Shown here: positions 26,311-59,840 of the stretch, in pieces
Numbering within the stretch: the stretch's first letter is position 1
Layout of the letters: the number at the start of each line of letters is the position of its first letter
DNA from: Microthyrium microscopicum
Taxonomy: Eukaryota
Direction of reading: 5' to 3'
Assembly (NCBI GenBank): GCA_010405405.1
Contig: MU004234.1
Coordinates: 2,639,697 to 2,703,696, forward strand
Length of the DNA: 64,000 nucleotides
The notes under the pieces: generated by a model
The model's input: the letters and a program-made list of their open reading frames with translations, nothing else
Database searches by the model: none
What the model was told of the DNA's origin: nothing
Made by a program: the position numbers and the translations under genes

Positions 26311-28106
26311 TTAGCACTCAGCAGCAACAGTTCCAAAAATCTTAGTATCAAAACCATAATGCTGCGCATCGGTAAATTGGCACTTGTTATTCGTGCATTG
26401 TTCCAACCACGGACACTGATGGCCTAAGAAGCAGCTCTCCTTGATACATCCAGTGCCGAAAGGACACTTTAGAGCGCGTGCCTTGTGGCGCAAGGTCTTG
26501 CGCATTCCATCGTCAATGGGATCGTGGTCGTATACGCAGTTGTACTTGCCGCAAAAGCCGGTGAGATGTAGATTGTTGCAGAGGTTTGCGCCGGATCTCT
26601 CTCGACGCTTGTTGAATTTCTCAAGTTCGATTTGGTTGGGTGGTTGGAGAGGAATGTCGATGCGTTCTTTGGCGCGGTTGACGGGGATGCCTTTGGGCTT
26701 GGGTGGGGCGGGTTTTACGGATATGTTACCGGGTTGTCTTTCTGGTGGTTGTTAGTACGGCTTTCTTAGAGATTATAGAGAATATGTTTGGGTGCTTGTG
26801 AATATGCTTTTGGAGTATCTTGACAAACATGAATCGTTGTACATAGGAGGGGATGGACGGGAGTATTGTGACTGTTGTCGTGAGAGATCACACGTGAAGA
26901 CTCACCTTGATTTGCAGCCGAAGTGATACCAGCATAAGAATTAGAGTTCGAATTGCTTGGTCGTCGATCACCATTGACTGAAGATTCTTCAGGAGTTGGT
27001 AAGCGAGGAGTCGTAAGAGGGTTAGCAGCGTTGTTAGCAGCCTGAACTGCATGGTTGATCGCGGCTCCATTGGTAGTTTTCCCATTTTTGACAGCCTTGG
27101 GAGTAGTGACAGTATTGACAGCCTGTGGAATAGCAGCAGCGCTGACAGGACTTGGAGAGCCAATTGGCAGCAATTGAGTAAACTGTGGAGAACGAAAGAT
27201 GGGTTTGTCTGGCATTGGTTCAAAGACTTCGCCAAAGTCGACCATTCCGAAGGGAGTATCGCGATATTGGGCTCCAGTATTTTTATGCTTAACAAGAAGA
27301 GTCTTATTTCTTGCGACTGGATCGTGGCGGTACTTGTCCAATTCAGCAACGTAACCATTATCATGGCAACAAGCTAAAAAGATCCTTTCGCAATGAATAT
27401 CATGAGCATAGAATCGATAGGTGTCTGTGATATCATAAGTATATATTGGCCAGCTTTGCAGACATTGAACAAACCTCTAAGCTTGGCATCTGCCCGTTCT
27501 TTTCCATATCCACAGTCGATAAAATGAAACAATGGTTGATGTCCTGGGACGTGTTAGTAAACTCATCCAAAAGAAGTGTCGTCGATAATAGTGATATCAA
27601 CACAATCTCCAGCAGAACTTACCAAAAGACCAAAAAAATTGATCAAACCAATCTCTAGATTTAATCTGCCCAGTTTCAAATAATACTTTAGATAGGCCCA
27701 GCCTATTCGCAAATACATTAACCATGACATCCACATCCGCACCCAACGACACAACATTGTCTTGCAATGCGTTCATCACTTGTCTCCGCAGCGCGCTCGC
27801 CGCCTCTTCACCACCATTCTCATGTGCTGCCTCCAAAAACGAGCTCTTGAATTTGTAACCGTCGCCATCAATGAGGACAACGACAAACTTCTTGCGCTTG
27901 ATGGCTTGGTCAGCTGCCTGGGACATTTCGCGGTAAGTCCGTTTATGTTCGCGCTCTTCGTCTAGATCGGCCATGAGCTGTTTAATTCGGCGGGATTGTT
28001 CGTCATTCTGGGTGACTAGTTGCTCGAGTTTGACTTGGCGGTAATCGTCAAAGCGTCGAAATTGAGCTACTTCTTCGAGGGCGATTATGGGTTCGGATTG
28101 CTCCAT
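26311..28106 (-). CDS. CCCH zinc-finger protein with N-terminal coiled coil and NYN/PIN-like domain, ~500 aa, 4 exons
   Basis: Exons 28106-27623, 27543-27475, 27424-26906 and 26741-26311 total 1503 nt in frame. Motifs VVVLIDGDGY, CGYGKERADAKL, ACCHDNGY; C-terminal fingers CNNLHLTGFCGKYNCVYDH, CPFGTGCIKESCFLGH, CPWLEQCTNNKCQFTDAQH. Confidence 0.85.
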
Positions 28107-28888
28107 GGTTTTAGGGGTGTGGCCTGGTTGCAGGCGAGCTGGTAGGTGTGCGGTCAAGCGAGAAGATGGGCGGTTTCTAGGGAGGCTGAAGTAAAGAATT
28201 CGAACAGGGAAAGAGAGGCACTGGGCAGTGTAGATCAAGGCTACTAGTTGTAGGTGTAAAGAGGTATTTTGGAGTAGTAGATGATAAGCAAAGAAAAAGG
28301 TTGAGGATTGGGGGAATTTTTGGACAAGCTGGAGGTGAGGTTGAAAAGTGGGGCTTGCTATCAGCTTGGGGCTACCCTTTTTAGGTACAGTACTAACTAA
28401 GGTTTGAGGTGCTGAAACGAGTGTAAAATCGATTAATCCGAATTCAATACTCGTAAATTGTAGAAGAATACAAATCAAGGAACGGTGACCTTCGAAGTAA
28501 TACTGACGCAGGATACCAGCAAATCATTTCGTCTCTTCATTGCTAACAAGACCTCAGCCCTACAGTGCCATTGCTTCTTCAAACAAGATAGGGGCTATCG
28601 AAATGAGAGACAACATTGAACGCTGGAAAGACATCGAAGAATAGTATCCAATGGCAAGCATATCGAAGGCACCTGAATGGTCAATTGTTTCATTATCAGA
28701 CAATTCTCGAACAGCCTTCTTATAAGGCATAACACATACACAAACAGCATTTGTAAACAACGCTTCTAAACAATCCTTACCATCCCAGTACTAAAGCCGC
28801 TTCTAAAGGTATCAAGTTTATCATAACGGAATCAACAGTACGAATCCAACAATCATGGCAGTCCACAGCCATGGGAAACCAGCAATCA

Positions 28889-32719: not shown

Positions 32720-34234
32720 TTAAGGCTGAATATCATCCTTTCGTGAATGCTTGAAAATGCTCCCGGTCGTGCTCCGAAACGAAGTTGTACTCCTCGATGA
32801 AGCTGGCCGAGGACCCTTCTTGATCGTGTTCTTGACTGAAAACGCTCTCTTCAATCTCGCTAACCGTGAATCTCGCGCTTGATCCTCCTTGTCTCGTTCG
32901 TCAACGCTCAGTCTGAGAACTTCTTCTTCACTCTCGCCGTCCTCATTGTCCATATCTTCATGCTCTTTGCTATGACTGACTCGCTGTTGGGTCCGGTCTA
33001 GCTCGTTCTGCAATAGATCCGCAATTATTTGCCAGCCAGCAAGGCCAGCATAAGAACCAGAGCCACATTGAGATGCGCTGTTCTGCCAGGGACAATGCGT
33101 ACGATGGAGCATCACCGCGTCAAACCGCATCTCTGGTGACCCATCTGGGCCGGTTAGGCTCGCGTAAAGCCAGAGCCCGACTCGAGCAAAGCACTTTTGA
33201 CATGACGCTATACTGACTCCTCCAACATCTTGGCCTGTCCAGCCGCATAGTGCCATTAGCAATGCCGTTTGATTTATGGCTTTGTTTGCAGATATTTCTT
33301 TCGGTTGAGTGGAGTCGTCTTTCGGGTCGCTGTCTGTGCCGGACTTTGGTTCGGCTTGCTTGGCAACAATACTGGGCGCGAGATGTTTGGCAATACCACC
33401 TATACGGAATATAGGCTGGCTCGGGGTACCCTCTGTTTGTTGTTCCACAACTTGTGCAGGTAGGGAGGAAGGAATTTTCGCAAGGGTTTCGTATCGTTGT
33501 ATAAGTTCGCTTTGCCATTGAGCAGGATCCGAGAATTTGATGCGGTAGATGTCATCTGCGGTGCACAATCAAAGTTAGCAATACTCGCAACAATAGCATC
33601 CGATTTACTGACCTTTGCAGCCTGCCTTTCTCCACAAACAGTCTTCCGAGTGACCATCCGCTAGGAGCGTTTGATACTTTTCCACAAATATGTTTTCCGA
33701 GTCCGCTAGCCACCATTTATCTTCATCATCCTTATTTTCCTTGCTGCTCTTTTCGGTCTCCTTTGTAGGATCTGCACCAAGCTTGACCACTACATGCTTT
33801 CCACACGCCTTGCAGCCAACTTCATCTTTGGCCACGACAGACCACCCTCGTTTAGCCCATTGCACTTCTCCTATTGGGCTTGGCTTTGACGACCAGACTT
33901 TGACATCAGTGAAAGTCTTTAGTCGCTCGAGGAACTGGTCTTGGTTCCAAGGCGCGTAGCTTCCAGCGAACCGCTTTGAGTTGGGAGATGATGAGGCCGA
34001 CTGTTTGCCAGTTTCGAAGGTGGATGAGATCAGGCGAACGCTGGTAGTAGATGATCGTACAGCTCCTGGACGCTGGAAGTTTGACATGGACATACGGGAG
34101 CGCTTAGTATGTCGATCATTTGCTGGTGTTGGTGGGGTGCTATCTTGAGAAAGGTCAGGCTGTGAATGAAGTTTTGAGGAACTGAGGTTGTCTAGCAACT
34201 TGTAGAACTTTCTTTTGCTAGTTGCTAGAGCCAT
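32720..34234 (-). CDS. C3HC zinc-finger / Rsm1-like nuclear mRNA export-surveillance factor (NIPA/Pml39 family), ~485 aa, 2 exons
   Basis: Exons 34234-33613 and 33555-32720. YAPWNQDQFLERLKTF...WAKRGW..C..C...H.EDCLWR, and second module ALCGW...CQKCFARVGLW...H..HCPW. Confidence 0.88.
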
Positions 34235-35220
34235 AGTATCGAGAAATAGAGGATGGGAGGTTGAAGGGTTGTTTGATTGGCCACGAGCCTATTAGCGGCC
34301 AGGGAGAATATATTTTAGGTATCAGCTTTGAAAGGTTATGAGCATAATCAAATTATTGTGTTCATCACAGGTTGATTTGTCGATGAGAAGGGACTCGAAA
34401 CAGTGCTTTGGATGAACCTGGAGAGCTTCTTCCTTTGCTGGAAAACAAATACCGCAGAGAATTTTCAGGATGCAACATTAATTAGCCTCTTTTAGTTTAG
34501 TGCAATAATAATTTTTACTAATTATAGATCGTAGTACTACTCTTTATAATTATATATTGGTTTTATAAAAGGGATAATTATATCCTATAACTAGTATACT
34601 AGATTTAGCAACTTACTTAGCTACGCTAAATTACTAGTAAAAGGGTAATATAGAGAGGAAAGCTATAGAAAAGGCTACTAATAAACTAAAGACTTTATAG
34701 CCTTAATTAAACTATAAACTTAACTATATATATAAAAAATATATATAAATTACTAGTAAAAGAACTTAATTAACTAAAAATAATATAGTAAGGACTAATT
34801 CTAAGGCAAAATCTATTAATAGATGCTAAAAAGGCTAACCTTTAGGTAAGGCAAAGTCGCTTTATTAAATATAAAAAGACTACTAAAGAATTTAGTAATT
34901 AGGATAGTAAGATTAACTACTCTACTCTAAAAAAAAGAGCTTTTAAGATATATAATATTACTATATAGACTAAAATCCTAGGATAGATAATTTATAAATA
35001 TTACGTCCTTTAGCTATATAAAAAGTAAATTCTATATTTACGTCTAAAGCTTAGATACTTTAAAGATCTAGTAACTAGGTAATTATAGTAGTATATAACG
35101 TTTAAGGAAGCAAGTAACTACTTTTTAGTTAATAAATCTATAGTCTCTTATTAGTAAAAAAAGCAAGATAAGGCTAAATTTATTACTAGTAACTAGAAGA
35201 AGATAGAACTTAATATAGAA

Positions 35221-36550
35221 TAAGAATACTTCCTAGACTTAGAATTTATAATCTATTGCTAGTTTATTATTTAGCTTATAGAGAACTAAGAGATTTTATC
35301 TAGCTAGTTCTTTAGAGAGGCTACTTAATAATAGCCTCTAGTATATACTTTCCTTATAGCATCTAGATAGGCTATTCCTTAAAGACCTTACTTTTTAAGA
35401 AGCTAGCTTATAAGGTTTTAAAAACGCTACTAGATTTCTTATTAAAAGATAACCTATATAAGCTAAAACCTTTCTTAAGATTAGAAACAATTTATTAATC
35501 GTTTTATTTCTTTTTATTAGTAATGCTATACTAGGTTAGTTACTCCTATAGGCTATAAAGTAGAGGCATATACCTAAATCCCTACTTATTTTATTATAAA
35601 TAGTAATAAAACTCCTTATATATATAAAACTATACCTAGCTATATCTATTACTTAGTAAGATTAAACAATATGTCTTATACTATTTCTAAAAGCAAACGA
35701 AAGAAATAATTAATAATAGTATATTTAGGAGCCTTTACTAATAAGAAGATAGTTATAAAACTATTAATTATATTCTATAGATTACCTACTAAATATTACG
35801 ATTAAAATAAAGTTATTAAGGGATTTCTTTATAATAAACGCGTTATTATAAAGTTTAATAAAACTACCTAAATAAATTTATTCCTAATTATTCTATAGAT
35901 TAAAGATTAATAGGTTCCTTATATAGATTCTAAGTAGTACTAACTTAAGTAAGAATAATATTACTAATAAGCTTAAGGTAAGGATACTCTTCTTTAAATT
36001 TATTTTTATTCTAACTTATTCTTTAGAACGTAGTATAGGCTTTAATTCTTAAAGTAATAAAGCTTATGCTTTTATTACTACTAAACTTATAAAGTTTAAT
36101 AGTAGTCCTACTAACTAAATTTACTTATTAATATAGTCTATACCTTCTTAGCTAACGTTAAAGGTTATTATTAACTCTATAGTATTTTATATAACTAAAG
36201 AAGTTAAGGCTTACTATTACGCATATAGTATTATTCTTATAGTTATTACCCTTAGACTAATAGCTAAGATTTAACCTTTAGATATTAGCATTAACTAAGT
36301 TATTAAGAAGTACCTTTAGGAATATTAAGACAAAATTACTTTTAAAGCGTATCTAAATAAAGATTTTTATAATCTTATTATAAGCAAAAAATGTATTATC
36401 TTAACTAAAATAGTTACTTACGCGTAGGAAAAGGCTTATACTTAGTAAACTTATTAAAAATATAATATTATAAAGTATTCTTTTACTTATACTAGAATTA
36501 ATATTACTCTAAATAGCTTAGAAGATTATCTTATATTAGTAAAAGGAATA
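35221..36550 (+). pseudogene. RIP-destroyed pogo/DDE_1 transposase (recognisable core: CENP-B-type HTH plus DD35D catalytic domain)
   Basis: Reversing C>T/G>A changes by eye gives FS.GWL.RF.KRY.ISY.K.T..SQNLP (~35390-35475), NSDETP (D at 35605), YDERV.VKFNETAW.N (~35830-35877), VIIDS..FH (D at 36173), VI.PGLTAKIQPLD (D at 36281) and SF..TG....DGSEDHLI.VKG (~36478-36547). A 49-nt GTAAGG..CTAAC..TTAG intron at 35978-36026 restores the frame. Confidence 0.85.
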
Positions 36551-39390
36551 GCTACTAGTAATATTAATTTATTAGATTAGAGATTAATACTACTACTAAG
36601 AAATAATTCTAATAATTTAAATCTTCCTAAGGAGATAAAGATTAAAAAAGAAAAGAGTATTCCTTTATTTTACGCTAACTAGGCTAATAAAGAAGAGGTT
36701 AATAATTACTTAAATTAATAAAAAGAAGAAGCTAATCCTTCTTCTAACTTTAAATCTAACTCTAAGTATATAGAATTAGAGCCTTTATAATATATAGATC
36801 CTTCTATAGTTATAGCTCTAGTTTAGACTCTATTTTAGCCTCTATTTTAGCCTCTATTTTAGACTACTTATCCTTAATCTCTACTTTCGTCTTAGTCTTA
36901 CTCTCTATCTTAGAATTAATATTAGACTATTTATACTTAATCTATTTTTGCTTTTCTAACTTAGTATAAAGCTTAACTAACGGATTAAACTTAAGAAGAG
37001 TAGCACTAACCTATTCTTTAATATTAGAGTTAAGCAAACTTTAACTATTAGAATAGACTTTCTCTCCTTATAAATTACTATCCTTCTATTTAGGTTCTAA
37101 AGAAGAGCCATAGCAAAAAGAAGGATAATTAGTCTTAGAAACCTAATCCTTCTTAGTAATAAAATCCTTAACTAGTAAGTCTTACTAATTAGGTAAAGTT
37201 TAATCTAAATCTTTAGCCTATTACAAAAGTTATTTAGAAGAGAGAACTAAGGGAACCTTATAAAAAGAAGGATCCTTAGGCTATAAAGATGCCTATAATA
37301 AAGAAGTTAATTATAAAGAAGCTTATTCTAAAGAAGTAATTAATAAAAGTAAAGAAATAGATTTTATATACTAATAACTACTACTAAAAGTTAGAGTTCT
37401 CTATACGTTAAGTCTTTTATTTTATCTTTATAAAGTATAAGAATCTTTTTTAGTTATTTATAAAATAACTTATATATTTGCCTTTAAAGCTAGTTTAATT
37501 AGTTACTAATTATATTAGTAAACCTATCTATAGTATATTATATCTCTATTTATAGAAGGAGTTATAGAAAGTAATATACTATCTTAAAATAAACTTTCTT
37601 TATTAGTAGTAGCTCTAAGAACTAAGTAATACTCTTCTTTAACTAAGAAATTATATAAGGAGATATAATTATAGGTTATATCTAGTATATATTATTAATA
37701 AATTATTTTTTTAGTATAGCTAGGTATACCTATAAATAGTACTATAAGATCCTATAGTTTATATTTTATAGTTTAACTACTAGTAAATCTATAAAGAATA
37801 ATAGAAGATAGAGAGGCTAGAAAAGAAAAGAGAAAGAAAGAGCTAAGAAATAAGGTAAAGCTAAAGAGAATAGCTAAAGAGGAATAGCTAAAAAGAAATA
37901 GCTAAAGAGAAGCTAGAAGGAAATAGCTAAAGAAAAGGTAAAGATAGGAAATCTATAAAAGGAAAAGATATCTAGAAGCTATCTAGGATAATAATTAATA
38001 GTAAATCTAGTCTAGAGTATAAAGCTTTAAAAGTTAAAGAAGCATATATAATAATCTAGTATTTAGGAATCTAAGCCTAACCTAAATAGGCTAGTTACTT
38101 TAAGAGAGCTAATTAGTAGTTTAGAAAATCTCTAGGGTTAATAAACTTTACTAGAATCTAACTTTATTTACTATTACTAGTAATAGAGATTAGTTATATA
38201 GTTATTTTTATTAGCTCTCTAACTTACTAAGAACGTAAGAATAATTTAAAGTAAATATAGTATAACTATCTTTAAAGATATAAGTTAGCTTAGGCTATCT
38301 TAGGCTTTTATCTTTCTTTATAAAAACTTATATCTTAGCCTATTATACTAAATAAATTATTATTTAAGAAGAGCTTATTAAATTAATCTTAGAGTTAGTA
38401 AATATCTTAGTATACTTATATATAAGTCTTATCTATTATAGTATCCTTAAGTTAGTATATATTATAAATCCTAAATAAATTAAAGTAATAATTTATACCT
38501 AACTTATAGAAAAGTTTAAAGTAGTAAAGTTTAAGAGTAAAAAGAGATAGAAGTACTTATAGCCTCTAAAGTAATAATTATATAGTATTTATTACTAAGC
38601 TTAATAAAAAGGGCCTTTATATTACTAACTTTTACGTATAAGACCTTAAGATTAGCTTTATTACTACTAATATAAAGTACTATATAGTAGTAATAAATAC
38701 TAAATAGATATACTATTAAAAGACTAGATATTCCCTTTCTCTAAGTATAATACTTTTCTTTTAGAAAGTAGCTTACTTTTATATTAAAACTAGCTTTACT
38801 CTATAGGAAATAAGTTAATAAGAGGCTTACTACTCTCTTACTTAATCTATAAAAGCTTTTATACTAAAGATTAATATATTTACTAATAGGCTAAAAGCTA
38901 TATAGACTAGTTCTCCTAATAATAATAATATACGTTTATTATTTATATATTTTTATTAAAAGGTACTTAATATAGAAAGTATATATCTAGTAACTAATAA
39001 AATAAATAGAAATAGATAATTAAACTATATTTCTTAAAAGATAGGCCGCCCTAATCTTTATTACTATTTTAGTAAAGATAAGCAAGATATTTTTATAGAA
39101 GCTATAAATAACGTCTAGTAACTACTCTAGCTTTAATTTACTATCTTTTATAGTAAATATATATAAATTAGATTAATATACTACCCTATATACTATGCCG
39201 CCCTAATAACGCTTTTTATTTAATTTTAGCTTAGCGTTATATTCTATTAGTCCTTCTTATTTAGAAATATTTACCTATATTTTAATATAAAATAAATATT
39301 ACCTAACGTAAGTAGAAAGGACTAAAATATAATTTATTAAAGTTCTACTTTATAAAATATATAAAGTTTATCTAAAATAAAGTATTTACT

Positions 39391-39482
39391 ATCTAAGTAG
39401 AACTAAACTACTTTAAACTATTTAAGTAGAACTAAACTACTTTAAACTATCTAAGTAGAACTAAACTACTTTAAACTATTTA
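39391..39482 (+). repeat. 29-bp tandem repeat (ATCTAAGTAGAACTAAACTACTTTAAACT), three-plus copies running into the gap
   Basis: Units at 39391-39419, 39420-39448 and 39449-39477, plus a partial fourth unit cut off by Ns. Confidence 0.92.
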
Positions 39483-40047
39483 NNNNNNNNNNNNNNNNNN
39501 NNNNNNNNNNNNNNNNNNNNNNNNNNNNNNNNNNNNNNNNNNNNNNNNNNNNNNNNNNNNNNNNNNNNNNNNNNNNNNNNNNNNNNNNNNNNNNNNNNNN
39601 NNNNNNNNNNNNNNNNNNNNNNNNNNNNNNNNNNNNNNNNNNNNNNNNNNNNNNNNNNNNNNNNNNNNNNNNNNNNNNNNNNNNNNNNNNNNNNNNNNNN
39701 NNNNNNNNNNNNNNNNNNNNNNNNNNNNNNNNNNNNNNNNNNNNNNNNNNNNNNNNNNNNNNNNNNNNNNNNNNNNNNNNNNNNNNNNNNNNNNNNNNNN
39801 NNNNNNNNNNNNNNNNNNNNNNNNNNNNNNNNNNNNNNNNNNNNNNNNNNNNNNNNNNNNNNNNNNNNNNNNNNNNNNNNNNNNNNNNNNNNNNNNNNNN
39901 NNNNNNNNNNNNNNNNNNNNNNNNNNNNNNNNNNNNNNNNNNNNNNNNNNNNNNNNNNNNNNNNNNNNNNNNNNNNNNNNNNNNNNNNNNNNNNNNNNNN
40001 NNNNNNNNNNNNNNNNNNNNNNNNNNNNNNNNNNNNNNNNNNNNNNN
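39483..40047. other. Assembly gap (565 N)
   Basis: Run of N bases. Confidence 1.
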
Positions 40048-40310
40048 AAAATCTAACTTAATAATAAACTATTCTAAACTTAGGTCTAGTTTATAGTAAC
40101 TAGTCTAGCTAATGCTAGATCTAGTAGAAATATATCTAATCTTTAAAAATTTAAGACTTAGTAAATATATCTCTAAACTATAGCTAAGAATAGAATTTAC
40201 TTAAGAATTAACTAGAATTACTATAAGAATTAGTAGGCATAATTACTAATTTTATAGAATCTAAGCTAAATTCTTATCTTTTTTATAAAGTAGCTAAAAA
40301 TATAATCCCC

Positions 40311-41035
40311 TAAAGCCCTTATAGCTTAGGGATTAGCTATAGTGAAACACTAAAATATGCCCCTACTACTATATATTCTACTACAAAGTAGCTTAGGACT
40401 TAAGAGCCTTAAGTCTATAGAGCTAGACTAATCTAGGACTAGCTTTAAATCTAGCCCTTTACATCCAAAGGGCTAGATTATCCTATAGTAGCTACTTAAG
40501 CTATTTGAATCTATAGTATTTAACACGTAATATTAAGATCTAGGAATTACTAGATCTTAATATTGTGATTACGTACCATGTCACGTGATAGTCACGTGCT
40601 AGATTACGTAATCTAGCCCTTTACGTTTAAAGGGCTAGATTATCCCACAGTAGCTACTTGAGCTATTTAAATCTATAGTATTTAATACGTAATATTAAGA
40701 TCTAGGAATTACTAGATCTTAATATTGTAATTACGTACTAGATTACGTGCTAGATTACGTTATCTAACCCTTTATATTTTTAAAGAGCTAGATTATCTTA
40801 TAGTAGCTAAAAATAACGTATTTTTAGATAGTAGCTATTTTAACTACTAATAGCTAATATTAGCTATTAGTAGCTAATATTATAACTAATATTAGGGGGG
40901 CGCCCCTAATCCTCTTTATTAAATAGTTAAAAATACTATTTTTTAAAGCCCTCATAGCTTAGGAATTAGCTGTAGCGAAATACCAAAATGTGCCCCTACC
41001 ACTACATATTCTACCACGAACTAGCTTAGGATTTA
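40311..41035. repeat. Subterminal repeat domain: 92-bp direct repeats flanking ~151-162-bp tandem hairpin-containing units
   Basis: Direct repeats at 40311-40402 and 40944-41035. Tandem units start at 40448, 40610 and 40761 (third partial); the first two each carry 13-bp and 15-bp stem inverted repeats. Confidence 0.88.
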
Positions 41036-47567: not shown

Positions 47568-48136
47568 CTAATCTTCCATCCTGTTCTGTTCTATTCTGCT
47601 TTCTAGATTCTCGAGCGCATCTTGTAACTCCGGTTTCTGCAGCTCTTCTTGAATGTTTTCTCCACGAAAGCTGGTAAAAAGCTCGGTCATTTGTTGACAC
47701 TTCTCTGTATACTCATCTTGAATGCACTGACTGCGCATACGTTGCAGGTCAGGATTCTCAGCAGATTCTTGTATTGTATGGAACATGCTCAGGAAGATGC
47801 CCTTAAAGGTCTTGTATTCGCTCTCCACCGAAGTCATCATTTCGGTCATCTTTGAAATGTCTTCTTTCTCTGTCTGGGACTGTTCAAGTTAGTCACTTTT
47901 CGTGAGAACCATCCAATGTGTAGGGTTTGTGGACGCACCAGAGCTGAAATATTCCGGTCCAAAAGTCGGAGCATGGCCTCTGCGCTCGCGAAAGTGTCTT
48001 TAGACATGGCAATTGCATCCATCGCGGGCCTCATGCGCTTGAGGGATTCGTCCAATTGGCAAAGAACTCGATGATCGAGACTTAGTTGTCGAAGGACGGC
48101 AGCGATTCGCCGGCATTCCTGTATTTCCCTCGCCAT
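47568..48136 (-). CDS. Orphan family A, paralogue A2: ~169-aa predicted helical protein, 2 exons
   Basis: Exons 48136-47939 and 47879-47568 with a phase-0 intron (GTGCGT..ACTAAC..AACAG). Shares MAxExxECRxIxAxLxxLSxD and RSxxxQxExTxKCQxxxxLFxxxRGxNxxEE with A1. Confidence 0.72.
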
Positions 48137-48574
48137 GAGTACTCCAGGCTTGAACTAAGGTGGTTAAGAAAGTCTGTGTCGGTTGCGTGTTTGTTCTTCG
48201 GTCGGGTGTCAAGTCTTGAGGAGCGGCTAGTGGTTGGTAAGGGCGCGTTGTCAGATATATTTGATGGTCAAAGAATGATGTTAGAGTGAGAGAGGATGTT
48301 AGAATGAGAGAGTACTATAGCAATTAAGCGTGTAGGAAGAGTTTGTGATAGAAGACATTTGAGTTCTCGGTCACCGGTGTATTGGTCTTTCAGTCTATTG
48401 CTCCATGGTACTTGCCTAATATTGAAGCAGCGAGTGGAGCAATTATATGGCCGAAATGGGCAATAACCAAGTAAGAATGTATTATGGCAGGAACTATCCA
48501 AGCAACAACAAACAACACTGTCCAAGATAAATAACAAAAAAGCTCATTCAGTTATTTGATGTCCTTCCTCCAAC

Positions 48575-49792
48575 TCATTCTTGAAGTCTCCACTCGCCCT
48601 GACGACTGATAAGTGTGCCCAGGTCGAGCTCATCGCTGCTTGAATCAATTGTCTCTGCGTCAACCAAGACTCGCCTGCTTGTCTTCAGACTCGGGAGTTC
48701 GTCCCATGCTGGCATTACCTCAAACTCGAACAAAGCGAAATGAGTTATCGTACCGCATAAGTGATTTACGCCTTTCGTGACCCATTCTGCTGCACAATGG
48801 AGCTTTGCCAGGTAGTGATCAGTGAGTTCCAAGTCCTCGATGATCTTTTCAGTCAAAGCGTTGGCCTCTTCCAAGAGCCGCTGAAGTGAATTAGTATCGT
48901 ACTTTCCAAAGATAGGCATAGTTCTTACCTTGTCCCATAGAGCACGAGACTGATTATTGCCCGTGTTTGATCTGTGACGCTTCTGGGAACTAGATGTACT
49001 CGATTGTGCTTGAAGGGCTCGCTTATTTCCTTTGCTAATTTGCCTGAGCTCTTCCCAGGATTTTGATACGATGGTCTGCTTTGCCTTCTTCTCGTTGAGT
49101 GTGCGCTCAAATCCGTCCAGAAGGTTTCGACTCATTCGAGCGCATCGCTCGCGAAGCTCGGGACAATCCATTCGCGCAGCTAGGTTACAAAGGTTACACA
49201 TCTGGTCAACGACTTTAGCTTCCAATTGCTGTAACCGTATTTCATTTCCCACTCCTTAGTTGTATATTTCAGAAGAGGTTCCATATTAGCTTTCAGAGTG
49301 GGATTTGCAATACCGACCTTGTAGTGTTAGTGACTATCGCACTGTTTATACTATTCATCATTGAAACTCACGACACTTTTCTTGAGAACGTCAACCTCGT
49401 CATCTACTGCGGGTATCCCGGCTGGATCCATGTAGTACTCTTTGTCCATCTCTTTGCTGTAAGTCTTGCTCTGTCCGTCTGATCCCTTCAAAGTCACTTC
49501 GTCGCTCTTTATGAATCTGTTGGGATAAGACTGCTCGATGTGTAAACCAGCCATATTTGTCTTGGCAAGGAACTGTTGGAATAGCTGTAGGCTGGCTTGA
49601 ACGATGTCTCGATCCACATATTCTGAATCGGAAGTCTGTGTGGTAGTGAAGCTTGCCTCGTCACTAGACTCTGAAGATGATACAGAAAGGAAGATGTCTT
49701 CGTCAAGAAAGATGACCTTAACATTGGAAGCCTGAGTTCGGAGCTATCAGCCGCTCATAAATTGAAAAGATTCATCAAGAAGGCCTCACCAT
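48575..49792 (-). CDS. Orphan multi-exon hypothetical protein ('C'); exon structure uncertain (possible 4-nt microexon, or pseudogene)
   Basis: ATG-only exon 49792-49790, intron 49789-49732, exon 49731-49372, intron 49371-49318, putative GTCG exon 49317-49314, intron 49313-49255, then ORF to 48575 with a probable in-frame 48-nt intron at 48928-48881. Confidence 0.5.
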
Positions 49793-50496
49793 TACTGTGG
49801 ATGGCTTTCGATATAGGCTGAAGCCCTCTGAAGCTGTGAATACCGAACAGGGGGATGTTCTGGCTCAATTCTGACATAGGCCGAGTTAGTACTCAATTAA
49901 GTTAATTGTGACACGCGGCCAGGGTCAAAAAGCGTTGAACTTACAAATGTAATTGTGATCATGGATGTAGTGGAGATGAAGAAGGATGCAGATGATCAAG
50001 TTTAGCGAAAGAAATATACGAAATCTTCACCAGACAGTGCAAATTCTTCTGCACAACAGATGACTCTCAGTCTTTGATGTACATCCTAGCGTAGAAAGAA
50101 GGCAGTCAAAATCTCTGATCATTTGATTATGAACTCATCAGAGCGGAACGAGAAAGGAGACGACTGCCAGATAGGGTATGTGACTGCAGTGGAATCTTTG
50201 GTCTCTATTGCTCACCACGGTAAGAGAAACACTTTCAACGAAGGCCTTGACGATAATGAAGATTTACTAAAGTAATAGCAGAGGAGCGATGATAGGTAAG
50301 TGATTAACTGAAGGTTATCTTCCTGACATTCACCAGTTTTGCTTGGCCATAAACATAATGAGGCGTACCGCAGGTTTTAGCTATTAATATTGCGAGCATA
50401 TCTACTCCGAAATGTGATACAAAGAGTGATTTAACAACTACAAGTACTCGACGGTCAATTATCTTCCTACATCGTTCGGATATCCATCCATAGTCA

Positions 50497-51695
50497 TCAC
50501 ATCATCTCAGTATCACCGTCGTCCGCTGCAATTGCATCGTCCGTTCCTGCTATAGGACCTGGGAGCGTCCACCCGTTTAGCTCCGAAGCAAGCCACTTGT
50601 CAATGGTCTTTTCGATAGCATGGGCATAACCGACCAGCTTGCAGATGATATCTTTCCAAACATCCCACAATTTTGGCCGGCTGAAAGCTGCGATGCTAAG
50701 TACTTCTACTGGATCAACTGGGACACCGGTATTGTAAGGGGAACTTCCCTTGGAGATCTTGGACATCTTGATATACAGGTATCTGAAGAACTCGGTCTGT
50801 TCTGGCGTTTCATTCCCATGTAATGATGGCCAGATACCATTGGTCTGAAAGCGTTCTTTGATGTAATGAACACAATCAAACACTTCCCGAGCATGACACT
50901 GCTCTACAACCAGAGTCGCAGCCATTGTGTTAGTGTCCCTTTTGACAGTTTGAAGCGCATATTCCACCGCTTGAAGCTCTTTTGAAGAAATTGGGCGGGA
51001 TATTCCTGACTCTGCATTGCTTAGGCTCAATTGTGAGAAGGATATGTCAATCTCGTCTTGGGATCCGAGTGGAGGAAATTGTGACATTTCAAGCTCAAAG
51101 AATTCTGCGGCGGAGGAGATCTGCTGTTGTGCCTCGTTGATATAGTTTTGCAGCTCCATCATGAGGAGCTCGTTGGGGTGAGCCGAAGAGTCAGAGTAGT
51201 AAAGCTCGACGATCGCTCCATATTCCAGGTCGTCCTGTAGGGCAGTTATAGTGCCAGGTGCTTCCTCTTCACTTGAGATCACTGGAACATTGTAATACTG
51301 GTTGAGTACCTTGGGCAAAGGATGGAGCAAGTGAGCGATTGCTTCGAAAAGAAACTCCTGCTGGGCCGCGACTAAGTGCACAACTTTCCAGTGCTCCGTA
51401 GATCGCTTCTGACGTTGGCCGGCCACTGGGCTGGGCTTCGTTGACCTTTTCTGTCGGTACTGCCGAGCAACATGTCGACTCGTCGAATTCTTCCCGCAAT
51501 CTTGCTGAATTAGCTGAGACTTGGATGGTCGAGTATGGATTGGTAGAGTCATCTGAGCCAACTCTTTGTTTTGGCGCACTTTGCGCTGGCGGATAGGCAA
51601 ACTTGTAAGCTCTCTATGATATAGTTAGTATCCCAATATACTGGAGAATAAAGGGGAACTCACGCGAAATGCGATGGCGTCTGCTTTGGTGCCAT
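50497..51695 (-). CDS. Orphan family B, paralogue B1, ~382 aa, 2 exons
   Basis: Exons 51695-51664 and 51613-50497. MAPKQTPSHFAELTSLPIRQRK ... VLSIAAFSRPKLWDVWKD...AIEKTIDKWLA. Confidence 0.82.
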
Positions 51696-52473
51696 AGTGA
51701 CGACGGGGCAGATATATTGTTGTGTGATATAGCTGATGTGATGTTGATATAACAGTGGTTCAGAGCAATTATGGCTGAAGTCTGCGTGGTGGAGCCAAAA
51801 GAGCCCGGTTGACTGAAATTTTCCCAGTTTCTTGGACGCGGAGTAGCGGGATTGTAGTGTGGGAAGAGTAGGTTCTGGACAACAGGAACCTGGGGACGCT
51901 CGGAAGTAAAGGGAGATTCTGAACGACCGGAGTGACCCCCAGCGTCGACTTTAGGTTGTGTTGACTTCACTTCTTTGCACCTCGAATTTGTCGTTGGAAT
52001 AGATCATTCCCGAGATGCCAGTGACCGTCAGAGTAGATAGGCTTGCGTGATCCGGGTATAACTCCTCTACATAGCAACTATGGACAGAATGTCAAGAGAT
52101 TGGATGGGTTTAAGTAATGCCATCAGTGGTATTGGACACACCTTCCGCCTCGAGAAATCTGATTTTTACAATTAAGCTATATCGCTCCAAAACGATCGAA
52201 CTTTTAGCTCTCATCTGCCAATTGTGGGCTAAATGATATGATTCAAGGTATCCTATTCGAGACGAGATGAGCCTTTCTAGGTATAGGAATCTCTCGTTTG
52301 TTAAGATTCTATTTAATGGTCTACTGTGTTGATCAACTCAGCTTAGATACAAACATGCCTGGCTACAAAGAAATACCGTTTCTCTCGCAAGCGACTCCTA
52401 GATTCAATTTTCTCAAACAAAGTAATTTTCTGGCCTGACCAGTATATAACTCCTTTTCAATCGCCCTTATGCC

Positions 52474-53529
52474 CTAGAGCGATGCGAGCCAGCTATCGAC
52501 AAGTTTTTCGACCGCTGCGGCATGATCAATAAGCTTCGTCGCCGTCTCTCGCCAAAGCCTCCACAATTTCGGACGGTTGAACGCCGCAACCGCCAGAAGC
52601 TCCAGAGAGCGAGCTCGAGGACCGCTGAAAGGAGAGTCCGCGTTGGATAGGTTGACATATATAAACTTCAATAGATCAGCCGCGAGCCTACTCTCTGTCT
52701 CATCCGGCGTTTCGTCATCCAGGGGTGCCGAGACTGCACTGTTATCGAACTGTTCTTCGATAGACAATGCGGAACGCAATGCTTCAAGTAGCTGGCACTT
52801 TTCAGCAGCCAATGTGGTGGAACTGACGACAATGTCCTTTTTCAGATCTCTTAGGGTATGTTCTACAGCCAGGCGCTCTTGCAAAGGCAATGGCTGGTAA
52901 ACCGTCTCGTTGACACTCAACTTATTGAAGATGATATGCAAATCATCCTCGCTTCCTGGAACCAGAAAAGGAAGGACTTGTGGAAGCTTAGTATACAACG
53001 TAGTAAGCTTGACTTGAAATGATTCTGCTGCGATGGGAATATGCTTTTCAGCTTTGGCAACACAGTCTGGCAAATTCTCCATGATACAACTACGAATTGA
53101 CGAGGAAGAACTTCGGGGCACTGTTGACAGCCCAAATAATGATCGCTCAACCCTGATCGCCTGGTTGTTTTGATAATGGTTCCACATGTCCGGTAAGGGG
53201 ACATGCATGTCAGCGATGGTTTCTAACAATATCTGCTGCTGAGCTGCCACAAAGGCCACGAATGATCCGTGGTCGGAACGTTTTGGTCGCTTTGGTATTG
53301 AGAGTCTAGTCGACTTCTTCGGCTTTTGGGTCTTCTTGATCATTCGTTCATCTTTTCGGGAGTGTGTTGGAAGAACCGACGGAGTTATCTCTTGTTGTTG
53401 CCGGGTCTTTCTCTGCCGGATCGGCAGGTTGGTGAGGTTTCTGTTTAGAATCAGCATTATAGTAAGACGGATTAACAAGAGGGTAATGAAGACTTACGCG
53501 AAAGGCTTTGGAGATTGTCGAGGCGCCAT
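52474..53529 (-). CDS. Orphan family B, paralogue B2, ~332 aa, 2 exons
   Basis: Exons 53529-53498 and 53440-52474. MAPRQSPKPFANLTNLPIRQRK ... LLAVAAFNRPKLWRLWRE...AVEKLVDSWLA. Confidence 0.82.
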
Positions 53530-54118
53530 TCTGGAGGAGTGCAATTGGCAAGCTCGAGATTGTAATTGTGCTAATAAAGTTGGAATAAAACAATGCAAGT
53601 ACGCGTGGAACGGGAAGGTTCGGCGCAACTGTCCTGAAAAGCTTAGATGTAGCGTTTGGGAGTGTGGTGATGGTAAGATTAATGTTTGAACAATCCAAAG
53701 GCGCATTGTATATATGGGGAGTCTTCGAACATCTAGAGTAAGTTCTTGCGCCTGCTATGGTGTCAAGTGACCGTGTCAAGTTCACTTTTACGCACCTCGA
53801 AGCGTGAGGTGAAAGATCGGATTCTTTAGGTGCCATCATACCTTGTAAGCCTAGATATCTCGTAGGTAAAATTTGGTAAGCAATGCATCTCTTCTGCAAT
53901 TTGATGATAGGAGGTCAAGAAAATAAGATAATGGGAGATTATAGAAACCAGGAATCAAGGGAATGACAAAGGATAATATAAGGAACCTGGGAAAATGAGA
54001 CATCTAGAACAACAGACTGGCCGCTCCATTGCAGCCAACAAAATGCTGTGTAATAGAGTTGAGTATCCTTTCTGAAAACCTCCTGTTCGAAAATTAGGCC
54101 CTTAGCAACCTACATCAT

Positions 54119-55471
54119 TCAGATGAAATCTTTCGACTCCCTCTGTGGAGTTTGTTTTATACCTATATCATATCTCTTGCCCAATTCATGCTTAGCGGTA
54201 TGCGTTTTCGAGCCCCAAAGCGATTGTCCTTTTGCCTCCAAAGCAAGCCATTGCCTGAACGACTTTTCCACAATAGCAGCCTTCTCATCAAGCTCAATAG
54301 TCATCTCTCCCCACCGCTTCCATAGTGCTGGCCGGCTAAAGGCCGCAAGCATGACCATGTCTTTTATGGGGAGAGGCGCACCTGGGCGATGAACTGCATG
54401 CAGCTGGGCCATCTTGGTGTTTACCCATCGTTCAAACCCAGCAAAGGCTCTAATGCTTATCTCTTCTGGGCTTTCAACCTTTAGAGGGATCCAACTATTG
54501 CTGAGCTTGAATCCCCATTGGAGGATCTGCATAGACTGCAAGACGTCTTCGACATTGCTTTTCTCCAGGTCCAGCTTTTGGTGTACTAGTCGAGCTTCTG
54601 TATACATCTTCGCCAGAACCGGATTCGTAGCGAGACGATCGTGAAAAGCCATTTCCTCTGTTACAATCGTCATCCAATTCATGAAGCTTATATCCGAGAG
54701 AATATTAGTGACTTCATTCTCCTCTTTGTCAACGAACGATAAGACATTCGGTAGTGTATTTGAGATTCTTGTAAGCGTAGATCGGAGAGATCCTCGCGCA
54801 GTAAGTAAGCGTTTATTCGCTGAGCTAATCTGGTTCTGGAAATCTTCCTTGAAGCGATCATGCTTTGAAGTGTTAGAGTCCATATGATATCGTTGGAGAA
54901 TATCTTGAAGCAGTCAGTAAATTCATCTTGTTATCTTTTGCTGACACATACTGTCCAAGTCTTCCTCAAATGGTACTGCCGCGAGGTTTGGGTATAGCGC
55001 ACAAATTTCGTTCAACGACGCGAGCATCTCTTTAGTGTTCTGCGAAATGATCTTGCGCTGTATACCTGCCATTGCTATATAAGCCTCATGGTCTCGAAGG
55101 CTCTTAGGAGCTGATAGATCTGACTCGACAATCGAGATGTTGGTTGGATGACTCGAACTTTTGCCATAGCGTAAACGAAAAACCATGCTCTTGCTTTGGT
55201 GAGTTGAACGAGGCGGCTTCTCTGAGAGACTTGCATGATGATCCGGCCCTTTGCCTTGGCGTAATGGTAGAGCTATGCTCTTGTTCTGATGATTAGGAAC
55301 GGCCTTCTTCTCGTGACCTCGGAAAGGCAGCGTCATTTCCTTGTGTTGATCAATTTTGCGCTGTCGGATAGGAAGATTCATGAGGTTGCTGTGCTTAAAT
55401 TAGCATAGCATATGGATAGGCCCTGGTGTTACTACTCACGTGAACGGTGTTTCTGTCTTCTTGACTGCCAT
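54119..55471 (-). CDS. Orphan family B, paralogue B3, ~417 aa, 3 exons
   Basis: Exons 55471-55440, 55388-54952 and 54903-54119 total 1254 nt in frame. MAVKKTETPFTNLMNLPIRQRK ... MVMLAAFSRPALWKRWGE...IVEKSFRQWLA. Confidence 0.82.
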
Positions 55472-55937
55472 GGTGATAAAACCACTGGGCTATCTCAAAA
55501 TAGGGGTTTGGTTTATGATGTTTGAAACGGAGAGAGCAGTAGAGGCGTGCGCAGAACCTGGGGATGCGATGAGCTGTAGCGCAGGAGTAGATAGGAGAAA
55601 GGTTGAGAGAACTGGGAGGCGTGTTAAGGTTAAGAGAAGCCTTCGAACTTGCGAAGTGACTAGTCTAGATGTTGACCTCTATACCATTTTCAGGCATGTG
55701 CACCTCAAAAGCTGCTAGATGAAGGCACCTACCAAATGCCAGTCACTTTGAGAACAGGAGCGCTTGGTAGTCTAGAATAGAGAATCTTGCCCACCAAATA
55801 AGAGTAGAAACTCTACTGCAGAGATCAGATCATGTCCTTCATGGCGTCGTGCATATATATACTAACTACAACGAACTTCGAACTTTGCAAGCTTCGATTC
55901 AGACCTGCCATCCTGTATTGATGGCTGAGTGAGCCCA

Positions 55938-57250
55938 TCATATATCTATATCCATGTTCTCGTCTTCCATCATGTCACCGTCACTGTTGTCTCTATTCTT
56001 AGAGATCGAGCGTCCTTTTGCCGTATGGGTAATCCACATGTCAAGAGCTTTCTCGACAACACAAGCCTGCTCAGATAGCTCTTTCGTTGAGTCAGCCCAG
56101 AGTTCCCAGAGTCGGAGCTGGCCATATGCTGCGATGGTAAGGAGTAGCATCGGATCAGCTGGGGAAGAATCGTCAAGCGTGAGTAGACAAGTGGCTTTCA
56201 ATGAGAGTGACTTCAGGATTTCGCTCTGAACTCTGCGCTTGGTTTGCTCGGGCTCTTCATCCCACAGAGGAACACGGATAGCGTTGGTTTCGAATTGTTG
56301 GCTGACCGATTTGACGGTCTGCAATATATTTTCCACTTTGATATGTTCCGAGCGAAACAACTGCGAAAACCAGCTGAACGAGATCTTCAATTGCTGTAGC
56401 TTTTGACGTAATTCGGGAGCGTCTGAAGGATCTGAAGTCGATGCCTCCGCTTCTGAGACCAGTGGTGCCGTGATTCCTTCCGTGAAGGCCATGCGTTGTA
56501 AAAACTCGTGAAGATTGTCTGCGTTGAGGGAAGCAGCAGTCTTTTTTTCTGTCAAGTCCAGGCTCTGGAAGTCCTTGAGCAGATCTTCTGTAGCATGAGT
56601 CTTCAGCAGCGGAATCTCTTGGTAAAGTGTTATGATATAGGCCTGCGCTAGCATTGCGTTGAACGCAACTCGCTTGGTTTGAGATTTGACAAACGTGTCC
56701 AGGTTGTTCTGTCGCTCGTGGGGAAGGGGCGATGTAGATCCAGCATAGAATTCATCCAAGATATCTGTTATTAGTCAGTGCATAGCTTGTAGGTTACTTT
56801 GGGGCAGCAAATACTTTGCTCGTATAAGGCGGTCTCTTCTCTACCAGCCATAGCTAAAGATAGCTTCTCCCCAGTGGTAAGCATAGAAACGCTGTTATAG
56901 TGCTCGAAGACGCAGCGCAAAGGGATAAGCATCTTGGCGACGGTCGCTGATACAACCCTATGTTGAATATCTACCATGGTCATCACTGGCCATGGCCCCC
57001 GTCGTGGTGGACCTCGTCGGATCAGGGGAAGTCGTGATGGCTTGGAACCGTTGTCTACGATAGACAGGAATTTGCCCTTGCTGATTACGCGAGTCTTATT
57101 GGCTCCTGAATTGAACGAGGCACCCATTTTGCTGAGACACCCAGAGTTGGGCTTGCGGTCTTGGGGGGCTGTTTTTTGGCTAACGCGAAGTTAGCATGCT
57201 GCTAGATAACCAGCACGAGGCAATACCACGACTTACTTTGGAGGGAGCAT
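55938..57250 (-). CDS. Orphan family B, paralogue B4 (most divergent), ~401 aa, 3 exons
   Basis: Exons 57250-57237, 57179-56815 and 56764-55938 total 1206 nt in frame. PLWDEEPEQT ... LLTIAAYGQLRLWELWAD...VVEKALDMWI; same intron phases as B3. Confidence 0.78.
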
Positions 57251-58401
57251 AGGTAGATGCGTGAGAGAAGGAGTAATCTGATGCGCGTATACCCAAAGCG
57301 GGAGATTAATGTTGAGGGCGTATGTTGCGTGAAGTTGACCAAGATAGCGAATGCTGTAGTGGGTAAGGAGTGGATTGCGTGTTGTGAGATGTTGGAAGAG
57401 CTTTGAACTTGGGAAGAAGTCCTTCGAGTCTGTTGCAGTGACTTTGCAGGTGCCGAATCGTTCACTCCCCTGATGGCCACCTCAAAGCACCCAGCCTAGG
57501 ACTCTCCCGCCTATCAGTCACTGCAAGCCCAGGAGGCATCAGGCTGCCTTTCTGGTCTGGAAATTTCACCCGAACTTCTAGTGGCCAGATTTTGTATCTA
57601 CTTCATGAATCTCGGCCAGATGGAGAAACGATGACTGCATATCAGTGGAAGGATACGACAGCTACATACCTAATTTCCATCTATCGGAGGTCCACTTGCA
57701 CGAAGCAGAGGCACCGAATCGCTCGATATATGACGTTCTAAGCTAAGAAAAGGACATAGTACTTCCTGAGTAGCCATAATTAACGCTGCATATGGACACG
57801 AAGAAGGATTGAAATGTGGGTTCAAGGTGAAGTTGCGAAGCTGGGTTTGTTTACTTTTGTACACTCAGCCTATGAGGAGTCACTAGGTAGGTATATAGAG
57901 ACAATAGAGGGACACTTCATTTTAAAGCGATGAGATTTGGAAAAATTATCCAATAGGATAAAAACAGAGTATACATGTCTGCTGTATGTGATGGTGGTAC
58001 TCTGATAGTAGTGAGGGGAGCAAGCCCCTTATTTTGCCATCCTGCTGGTTTGTTTACGCCTTTAAGGGGTGGCAATCAAGACAGCTTGCGCAACTTCCAC
58101 CGATTGCTTGACCAGCGCGCATAAAAGCAGGCAGTCTTTACCAGGGAAGGAGATACAGCATATATCATCGAAGAACAAGAAAATATGTTAAGAAGAATTG
58201 TAAATTGATGGGTGTGATGTTGGGTGCAAAGTGGGTGCAAAGTGGATCCAAGAACAATGGCTTTTTGCTCATCCGCGTCTAGCCGAAAGGGGCTTTTTGG
58301 AGAGACGTCAGATGGTCCAACTCCAACAACAGTTCTCTCCCCAGATCAACTCTCATTGTCTTTACCACTTTCGGATATCATGACAATAAATCAATAGTAC
58401 A

Positions 58402-59840
58402 ATGTCCTTACGCCCAGCCACCAAGCGTTTTCTCCCGTCTCCCAGAATCCTCACCACATCCCTCAACACCACCCACCACTCCCCTAGACACCACAAACAA
58501 AGCATACGATGGAGTTCAGTATCCCAAGCACCAGGCTCAGACCGGTACGAAGCTTCTCCCTCTCAAACTCACCAATCTAACGTCTTCCCAGAGTCCACTT
58601 CCCCGGCGCAGTAAACTCCAAATTCACACCCACCCTCTCCTTCACAAACCCCTCCACCCTCCCCGCAATGCCCACCTACCGCACCATCGACGCCGACGGT
58701 CTCCTAATCGACTCCTCCCGCCCACCAATATCCGTACCCGATGATATAGTCTTGAAGATGTACACCGACATGTTAACAGTCTCCATCCTCGACCCTATAA
58801 TGTACCAAGCGCAACGCCAAGGCCGCCTATCCTTCTATATGGTCTCCTCCGGCGAAGAAGGCATCGCCGTCGGTTCCGCGTCAGCCCTCACAGCATCCGA
58901 CGTCGTCTTTGCACAATACCGTGAAGCTGGAGTATTTCAGGCGCGGGGCTTTAGTTTGGATGATTTTATGAATCAACTTTTCGCGAATCGCCTGGACGTT
59001 GGTAGGGGGCGGAATATGCCGGTACATTATGGGAGTAAGAGTTTAAATATGCATACTATCAGTTCCCCATTGGCGACGCAGATTCCGCAGGCGGCGGGCG
59101 CGGCGTATGCGCTCAAGTTGCAGCATTTGCAGAATCCGGAGAGTGTGGAGCGCGCGTGCGTGGCGTGTTATTTTGGCGAGGGCGCAGCGTCGGAGGGGGA
59201 TTTTCATGCGGCGTTGAACATGGCGGCGACGAGAGCTTGTCCGGTGGTTTTTGTGTGTAGGAATAATGGGTATGCGATTAGTACGCCGACGCTCGAGCAG
59301 TATCGGGGTGATGGGATTGCGAGTCGTGGGGTTGGGTATGGCATCCATACGATAAGAGTGGATGGGAACGATGTGTTTGCTGTGCGCGAGGTTATGCAGA
59401 GGGCAAGAGAGTTGGCGCTTGAAGGCGATATGCAGCCTGTGCTGGTGGAGGCGATGAGTTATCGCGTGAGTCATCATAGTACGAGCGATGATAGTAGCAA
59501 GTATCGGCCGAGTGGGGAAGTTGAGGCATGGAAGAGGAGGGATAATCCAATTACGAGGCTGAGGAAGTGGATGGAGAATAAGGGTCTGTGGAGCGCGGAG
59601 AAGGAGGAGCAGGCGCAGAAGGAGATTAAGAATGCTGTTATGGCGGCTTTTAATAAAGCGGAAAAGGAGAAGAGGCCAGAGTTGAGGGCGATGTTTGAGG
59701 ATGTTTATGAGGAGGTTACTGAAGAGCAAGAGGAACAGATTGAGCAGTTGAAGGATGTCATTCGACGGTATCCTGGTGAATATGATGTGGAGCAGTTTGA
59801 GGGTGGGCTTGAAGGACTAGATAAAGCTCGATCACGATAG
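58402..59840 (+). CDS. Branched-chain 2-oxo acid (2-oxoisovalerate) dehydrogenase E1 alpha subunit, mitochondrial, ~463 aa
   Basis: Exons 58402-58544 and 58592-59840. AQRQGRLSFYM, TPP motif GEGAASEGDFH...CRNNGYAIST, phosphorylation loop YRVSHHSTSDDS; presequence-like N-terminus. Confidence 0.95.

Follow-up and report, generated by a model that had tools for sequence, protein, structure and literature searches.

We analysed a stretch of 64,000 nucleotides (nt) from the leaf-litter fungus Microthyrium microscopicum, a dothideomycete (contig MU004234.1 of assembly GCA_010405405.1, positions 2,639,697 to 2,703,696 of the forward strand; hereafter the window, with positions counted from its first letter). 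Between positions 50497 and 57250, the minus strand carries four same-strand, intron-bearing genes that follow one another head to tail, which we call g1 to g4. Judged by their sequences, the four genes are ancient tandem duplicates, and the domain that they encode is new in the sense that the family matches nothing described. Short spliceosomal introns characterise the window's fungal DNA, and the introns of the gene models were compared with the contigs of X1, the only public run listed. X1 is RNA by guess and consists of contigs only, six of them on 50000-58000. The gene models are as follows (aa, amino acids):

50497..51695, minus strand: g1, 382 aa; exons 51664-51695 and 50497-51613 (protein P0001, locus tag BT63DRAFT_470346)
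51614-51663, minus strand: g1 intron, 50 nt, GT..AG
52474..53529, minus strand: g2, 332 aa; exons 53498-53529 and 52474-53440 (protein P0002, locus tag BT63DRAFT_439654)
53441-53497, minus strand: g2 intron, 57 nt, exactly skipped in an X1 contig (joint 53440->53498)
54119..55471, minus strand: g3, 417 aa; exons 55440-55471, 54952-55388 and 54119-54903 (protein P0004, KAF2670674.1, locus tag BT63DRAFT_413371)
55389-55439 and 54904-54951, minus strand: g3 introns of the predicted model
55938..57250, minus strand: g4, 401 aa; exons 57237-57250, 56815-57179 and 55938-56764 (protein P0003, locus tag BT63DRAFT_244888)
57180-57236 and 56765-56814, minus strand: g4 introns, both exactly skipped in one X1 contig

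The start codons of g1 to g4 lie at 51695, 53529, 55471 and 57250, i.e. at a spacing of 1834, 1942 and 1779 bases. When compared by script, the exon models of g1, g2 and g4 agreed at every residue with P0001, P0002 and P0003 of the database; the g3 model reads the same as P0004 in a comparison made by eye only. The database names all of these products as hypothetical proteins of M. microscopicum. The first intron occupies the same place and phase in all four genes, after a mini-exon of 32 bases (14 in g4). A second intron is common to g3 and g4 at one aligned position, and is missing from g1 and g2.

Three of the six predicted introns (the one in g2 and both in g4), all with GT..AG ends on the minus strand, are exactly absent from the X1 contigs. 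The contigs that lack them must therefore derive from spliced RNA, and g2 and g4, at least, are spliced as modelled. The contig on g4 is 2272 nt long with a depth of 32, and g2 and g3 are represented by short contigs with depths of 2.6-4.5; these depths are unusable for ranking expression. The g3 contigs lie on 54513-54821 and 55205-55361, within exons only and with no joint spanned. No X1 contig lies on g1, which carries no weight on its expression. The 2272-nt contig also extends >960 nt upstream of the g4 ATG (57251-58000 and beyond), toward a divergent gene for a dehydrogenase E1 component. This extension either belongs to a very long leader or arose where the assembler fused two transcripts that overlap.

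With the four proteins as a four-sequence database, BLASTP returned significant matches for all six pairs, with identities of 22-33% and E values from 5e-12 to 1e-56. Together with the gene models, these matches bear out the initial annotation of the sequence, which had described four tandem paralogues. Over aligned codons, identity is 38% between g1 and g2 and 20-30% for the remaining pairs; on this measure g1-g2 is the closest pair and g4 the most distant member. No direct DNA repeats of at least 20 nt were found in 48000-58600, which argues that the copies are old. When a profile of the four proteins was run on the six-frame open reading frames (ORFs) of the window, scores were obtained for just six long exon pieces, all of them from g1-g4. 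The next-best match had E = 2, and no further copies of the family were found there.

The pattern of divergence between the copies is that of protein-coding sequence under constraint. Nucleotide identity was highest at the second codon position, lower at the first and lowest at the third in 6/6 pairs (for g1-g2, 0.65, 0.55 and 0.40, respectively). Synonymous sites are saturated: the NG86 estimates of synonymous divergence (dS) ran from 1.3 to undefined, and YN00 gave no estimate in five of the six pairs. The reading frames nevertheless remain intact in all four genes. Long-term selection maintaining the protein sequence is supported by these three features taken together.

Conserved blocks and protein anatomy

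Conservation is strongest in two pieces of the proteins, a helix block near the N-terminus and the last long helix. The last helix carries a C-terminal motif, which reads AAF....LW..W......L...A..IEK....WL in g1 and is placed as follows:

50590..50691, minus strand: g1 C-terminal helix motif, residues 319-352 (coordinates derived from the sequence)
52486..52587, minus strand: g2 C-terminal motif, residues 296-329
54245..54346, minus strand: g3 C-terminal motif, residues 343-376
56031..56132, minus strand: g4 C-terminal motif, residues 338-371

The initial annotation had proposed patterns for this motif and for two other blocks, one near the N-terminus and one in the middle of the proteins. The C-terminal pattern matched all four proteins literally as typed, and no match arose in 20,000 shuffles of their pooled residues. 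As typed, the N-terminal and middle patterns matched none of the four, because their spacing was one residue off and some positions are less strict, and in relaxed forms both were found in 4/4 proteins at aligned positions.

Within the last helix, positions 1, 4, 8, 11, 15, 18, 22 and 25 read WWILAIIW, WWALAVVW, WWTLAVFW and WWTLAVLW in the four proteins. This places the invariant residues on a heptad (3-4) stripe, with the consensus W-W-x-L-A-V/I-x-W, that is present in 4/4 proteins and in one helix only. Such a stripe resembles one side of a predicted hydrophobic core, as in a coiled coil or a helical bundle.

The basic N-terminus that had been noted from the sequence was recovered in all four, with isoelectric points (pI) of 10.9-11.8 over the first 90 residues; the pI of the middle part is 4.65-6.11, and acidic tails terminate g1 and g4. 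In the AlphaFold2 model of g2, residues 1-72 have a predicted local distance difference test (pLDDT) score <50, i.e. they are modelled as disordered. A start of the form MAP..P..FA.L..LPIRQRK is common to g1-g3. Mean Kyte-Doolittle hydropathy, taken over 19 residues, peaks at 1.08-1.15 in the four proteins, from which, by this crude test, they are soluble and have no signal peptide or membrane segment.

Relatives, predicted fold and surroundings

At the gathering cut-off, Pfam-A matched 0/4 full-length proteins and 0/6 exon translations. The best score was for SelB-wing_1, in g4 only, at 18.6 bits where the cut-off is 25. The word-seeded searches, which covered 5.8 billion clusters, returned the paralogues only. 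We also ran the family profile (255 positions), which is shallow, with 4 sequences and an effective number of sequences (Neff) of 2.3, against 1.84 billion representative proteins. This recovered the four paralogues at E <= 1e-89 and one other protein, P0005, at E 3e-4. P0005 is an internally repeated metagenome protein of 167 aa. It is the only member of its cluster, and the contigs that carry it reach 8.2 kb at most. We rejected it as a relative: hhalign gave a probability of 43% over 43 columns, and the C-terminal motif is missing. Among PDB sequences the best E value was 0.41, with two sequences at E <= 10, and none of 54 pattern matches on metagenome contigs was confirmed as a relative. 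The BT63DRAFT locus tags occur in no paper found, and papers naming M. microscopicum contained nothing on g1-g4 in their titles or abstracts, among the matches listed.

The unrecognised domain proposed in the initial annotation is therefore supported by the lack of any Pfam, PDB-sequence or accepted representative-library match. As far as public data show, the family is restricted to the M. microscopicum lineage, where restricted means restricted among predicted proteins in those data. The checks suggested in the initial annotation included a profile search and an AlphaFold model searched with Foldseek. The former returned no characterised, widespread family and the latter no characterised family.

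AlphaFold2, using the four-sequence alignment, produced an all-helical model of g2 with a pLDDT of 49.8; a model of the C-terminal 165 residues of g1 was helical, with a pLDDT of 59.3. The ESM Atlas's own model of g2 scores 0.43. Searched against the PDB with Foldseek, neither the g2 full model nor the g1 domain model gave a row at E <= 0.001. With VIA-align, the domain model reached a best Z of 5.7 (root-mean-square deviation (rmsd) 4.6 Å over 72 residues), which is background for helical models. The best rows for the g2 full model, covering residues ~67-332, were designed four-helix bundles. In the ESM Atlas there was no usable match for g1 exon 2, and the best feature score for g2 was 0.84 with a template modelling (TM) score by query of <=0.29; these matches are leads only. 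A homodimer prediction for the g1 C-terminal domain gave scores of 0.00 and 0.00, which count neither way. An elongated up-down bundle is a plausible fold on these models, and no more can be said. The constrained fold under selection that had been proposed at first is thus upheld in part: the selection is borne out by the codon-position pattern, and the fold is unsettled at these pLDDT values.

A 9-mer of the form TTYGAGGTG is found ahead of each gene:

51978..51986, minus strand: upstream element TTCGAGGTG, 291 nt before the g1 ATG
53793..53801, minus strand: upstream element TTCGAGGTG, 272 nt before the g2 ATG
55701..55709, minus strand: upstream element TTTGAGGTG, 238 nt before the g3 ATG
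57478..57486, minus strand: upstream element TTTGAGGTG, 236 nt before the g4 ATG, inside the span of the RNA-like contig

The 9-mer has seven matches in the window where 1.18 are expected, and 0/100 shuffles reach seven. GTGAA-like bases occur within ~10-25 nt after each TTYGAGGTG. The 9-mer may be a retained common promoter or control element, with possible co-regulation of g1-g4.

On the low-coordinate side the array is flanked by an OPT transporter gene, with diphthamide synthase and SNF2 helicase genes farther along; the dehydrogenase E1-component gene (Pfam E1_dh) lies just beyond g4. Directly downstream of g1, at 48575-49800 on the minus strand, is an orphan gene, P0006 (BT63DRAFT_454858, 338 aa), for which the word-seeded search found no relative. 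We rejected P0006 as a member of the family, the hhalign probability being 0.15-0.25%. An AT-rich, repeat-like block at 34000-41000, ~10 kb from the array, has a GC content of 16-28% in 2-kb windows and is interrupted at ~39484-40047 by Ns that mark a gap in the assembly; the block has the look of a degraded repeat region. Rfam gave 0 matches on either strand of 48000-58600. Elsewhere in the window, at 26766-28523 on the minus strand, a pair of neighbouring ORFs, one matching each half of Pfam DUF7923 (E 8.5e-15 and 6e-20), is probably a single gene split by an intron.

Interpretation and comparison with known systems

The reading that we prefer, and to which we give about an even chance of being right, is that g1-g4 encode an old, selectively kept, lineage-restricted set of helical proteins that are soluble and intracellular, start with a basic disordered head and would serve as non-enzymatic scaffolds or adaptors. 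We favour scaffolds or adaptors because no catalytic-looking motif or known domain is present. Each protein has a very basic head of 70-90 residues, predicted to be disordered, ahead of an acidic body that is all-helical in the models. On this reading, the N-terminal helix block and the last helix would make up the hydrophobic core of a coiled coil or an elongated bundle of helices. The body would contact other proteins, the paralogues perhaps among them, and the basic head would either tether the protein to a polyanion (nucleic acid or an acidic membrane) or serve nuclear import.

Several observations weigh against this reading. The fold is not established, with models at pLDDT 49.8 and 59.3 and an Atlas model at 0.43, and the VIA-align Z values do not rise above the background that the tool itself states for helical models. 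That no relatives appear may be due in part to the small number of close relatives that have been sequenced. The LPIRQRK motif at the start of g1-g3 is missing from g4. A classical nuclear localisation signal (NLS) has the pattern K-K/R-x-K/R or a bipartite basic cluster; two of the four heads (g1 and g2) contain simple K/R patterns of this type and those of g3 and g4 do not, so that nuclear import is weakly based.

The lack of recognisable relatives could also be explained if g1-g4 were a rapidly diverged offshoot of some known widespread family, for instance of chromatin, kinetochore, trafficking or coiled-coil adaptor proteins, that cannot be recognised from four members. The sequence signal fades quickly in helical and coiled-coil proteins, the profile is shallow, and the structure models are too poor for fold assignment. 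However, there was no match in Pfam, the PDB or the representative library even at permissive thresholds. The paralogues also recognise each other at 20-25% identity, and comparable orthologues in the library should presumably have shown themselves; we consider this explanation unlikely. Transcribed but functionless relics would likewise come without relatives or a known domain, but here four intact frames of 332-417 codons persist past synonymous saturation, the codon positions diverge as they do under coding constraint, a single face of the helix carries the invariant residues, and the splice sites are kept and used. It is extremely unlikely that g1-g4 are such relics.

The tandem layout, the strong divergence between copies and the lineage restriction are also consistent with conflict genes, i.e. 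a fast-evolving tandem array that would act in allorecognition or meiotic drive, or whose paralogues would relate as toxin and antidote. The unrelated orphan P0006, which adjoins the array on the same strand, and the AT-rich repeat-like block with its assembly gap ~10 kb away would fit such a locus. That the copies are old, conserved in defined blocks and not recently amplified makes this distinctly unlikely, as does the absence from the Pfam results of any domain that characterises known incompatibility or drive genes of fungi. Helical bundles that act on membranes or lipids, like apolipoproteins or the multi-component alpha-pore-forming toxins of bacteria, would account for adjacent paralogues of 330-420 aa that are all-helical and have an amphipathic, Trp-rich last helix. 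Chains of ClyA, Hbl, Ahl, Smh, YaxAB and apolipophorin were among the weak structural rows (Foldseek E 0.69-1.3), AhlB gave a VIA-align Z of 9.1 (rmsd 4.3 Å over 168 residues) with the low-confidence model, and such chains were among the language-model neighbours at 0.77-0.78. All of these values are below meaningful levels, and such rows are expected for any long helical model. The proteins have no secretion signal and no hydrophobic head (maximum hydropathy 1.15), 0/4 match PF05791 or PF06109 at E <= 0.1, and a very basic disordered head is not known as a feature of ClyA/Hbl-type toxins. A membrane role of this kind is very unlikely. A further proposal, decidedly improbable in our estimate, is that the paralogues are the parts of a lineage-born multi-part system, which would form a hetero-oligomeric helical bundle of unseen fold and either act on membranes or take part in a genetic conflict (allorecognition, spore killing or toxin-antidote). 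The layout of its genes would parallel that of the multi-component helical toxins of bacteria.

To return to the preferred scaffolds or adaptors, the nearest structural likeness of the predicted body is to up-down four-helix bundles, both natural and designed. The g2 model aligned with the designed bundles 6z0c_A (Z 13.8, rmsd 3.5 Å over 175 residues) and 9u78_B (Z 12.7, rmsd 2.4 Å over 117 residues), and with 1yo7_B (Z 9.3, rmsd 2.8 Å over 120 residues). This resemblance is uninformative on function, given Z values in the helical background, an identity of 7-14% and a model pLDDT of 49.8.

In the multi-component alpha-pore-forming toxins of bacteria, the components are encoded by adjacent paralogous genes, and in ClyA/Hbl-type toxins a hydrophobic head or beta-tongue inserts into the membrane. 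Like the ClyA, Hbl, Nhe, Ahl and Smh toxins, the g1-g4 proteins come from adjacent paralogous genes, are of similar length and are, in the low-confidence models, elongated and all-helical; the toxins appear among the structural rows only weakly. Unlike those toxins, they have no sequence match, no signal peptide and no hydrophobic head, they carry a basic disordered N-terminus, and their genes reside in a eukaryotic host and contain spliceosomal introns. No ClyA/Hbl-type chain was among the two PDB sequences at E <= 10.

A broader comparison is with the unique genes of Dothideomycetes. The survey by Haridas et al. (2020, PMC7082219) gives ~1,950 unique gene clusters per species, 8.6% of them with a Pfam domain, and a mean length of 394 codons for unique genes. 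The assembly comes from the same genome project, to judge by the locus-tag names and that paper's mention of Microthyrium. Like the unique gene clusters of that survey, g1-g4 are without a homologue elsewhere and without a Pfam domain, and their size is near the 394-codon mean. In distinction to those clusters, they form a four-copy tandem array of old copies (20-38% identity) with shared conserved blocks. Old copies with defined conserved blocks point to long-term selection and not to a recent or spurious gene call.

Tandem-expanded, taxonomically restricted gene families are already well known and frequent, and the array bears on no long-standing open question. An unrecognised domain is, on the figures of that survey (PMC7082219), not rare in Dothideomycetes. 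What the array offers among such families is a clean case: its four copies are old, two of them have spliced transcripts, and the invariant residues are sharply defined. It is a tractable entry point into what long-lived orphan genes do, and the family could supply a new Pfam entry and a target for structure determination.

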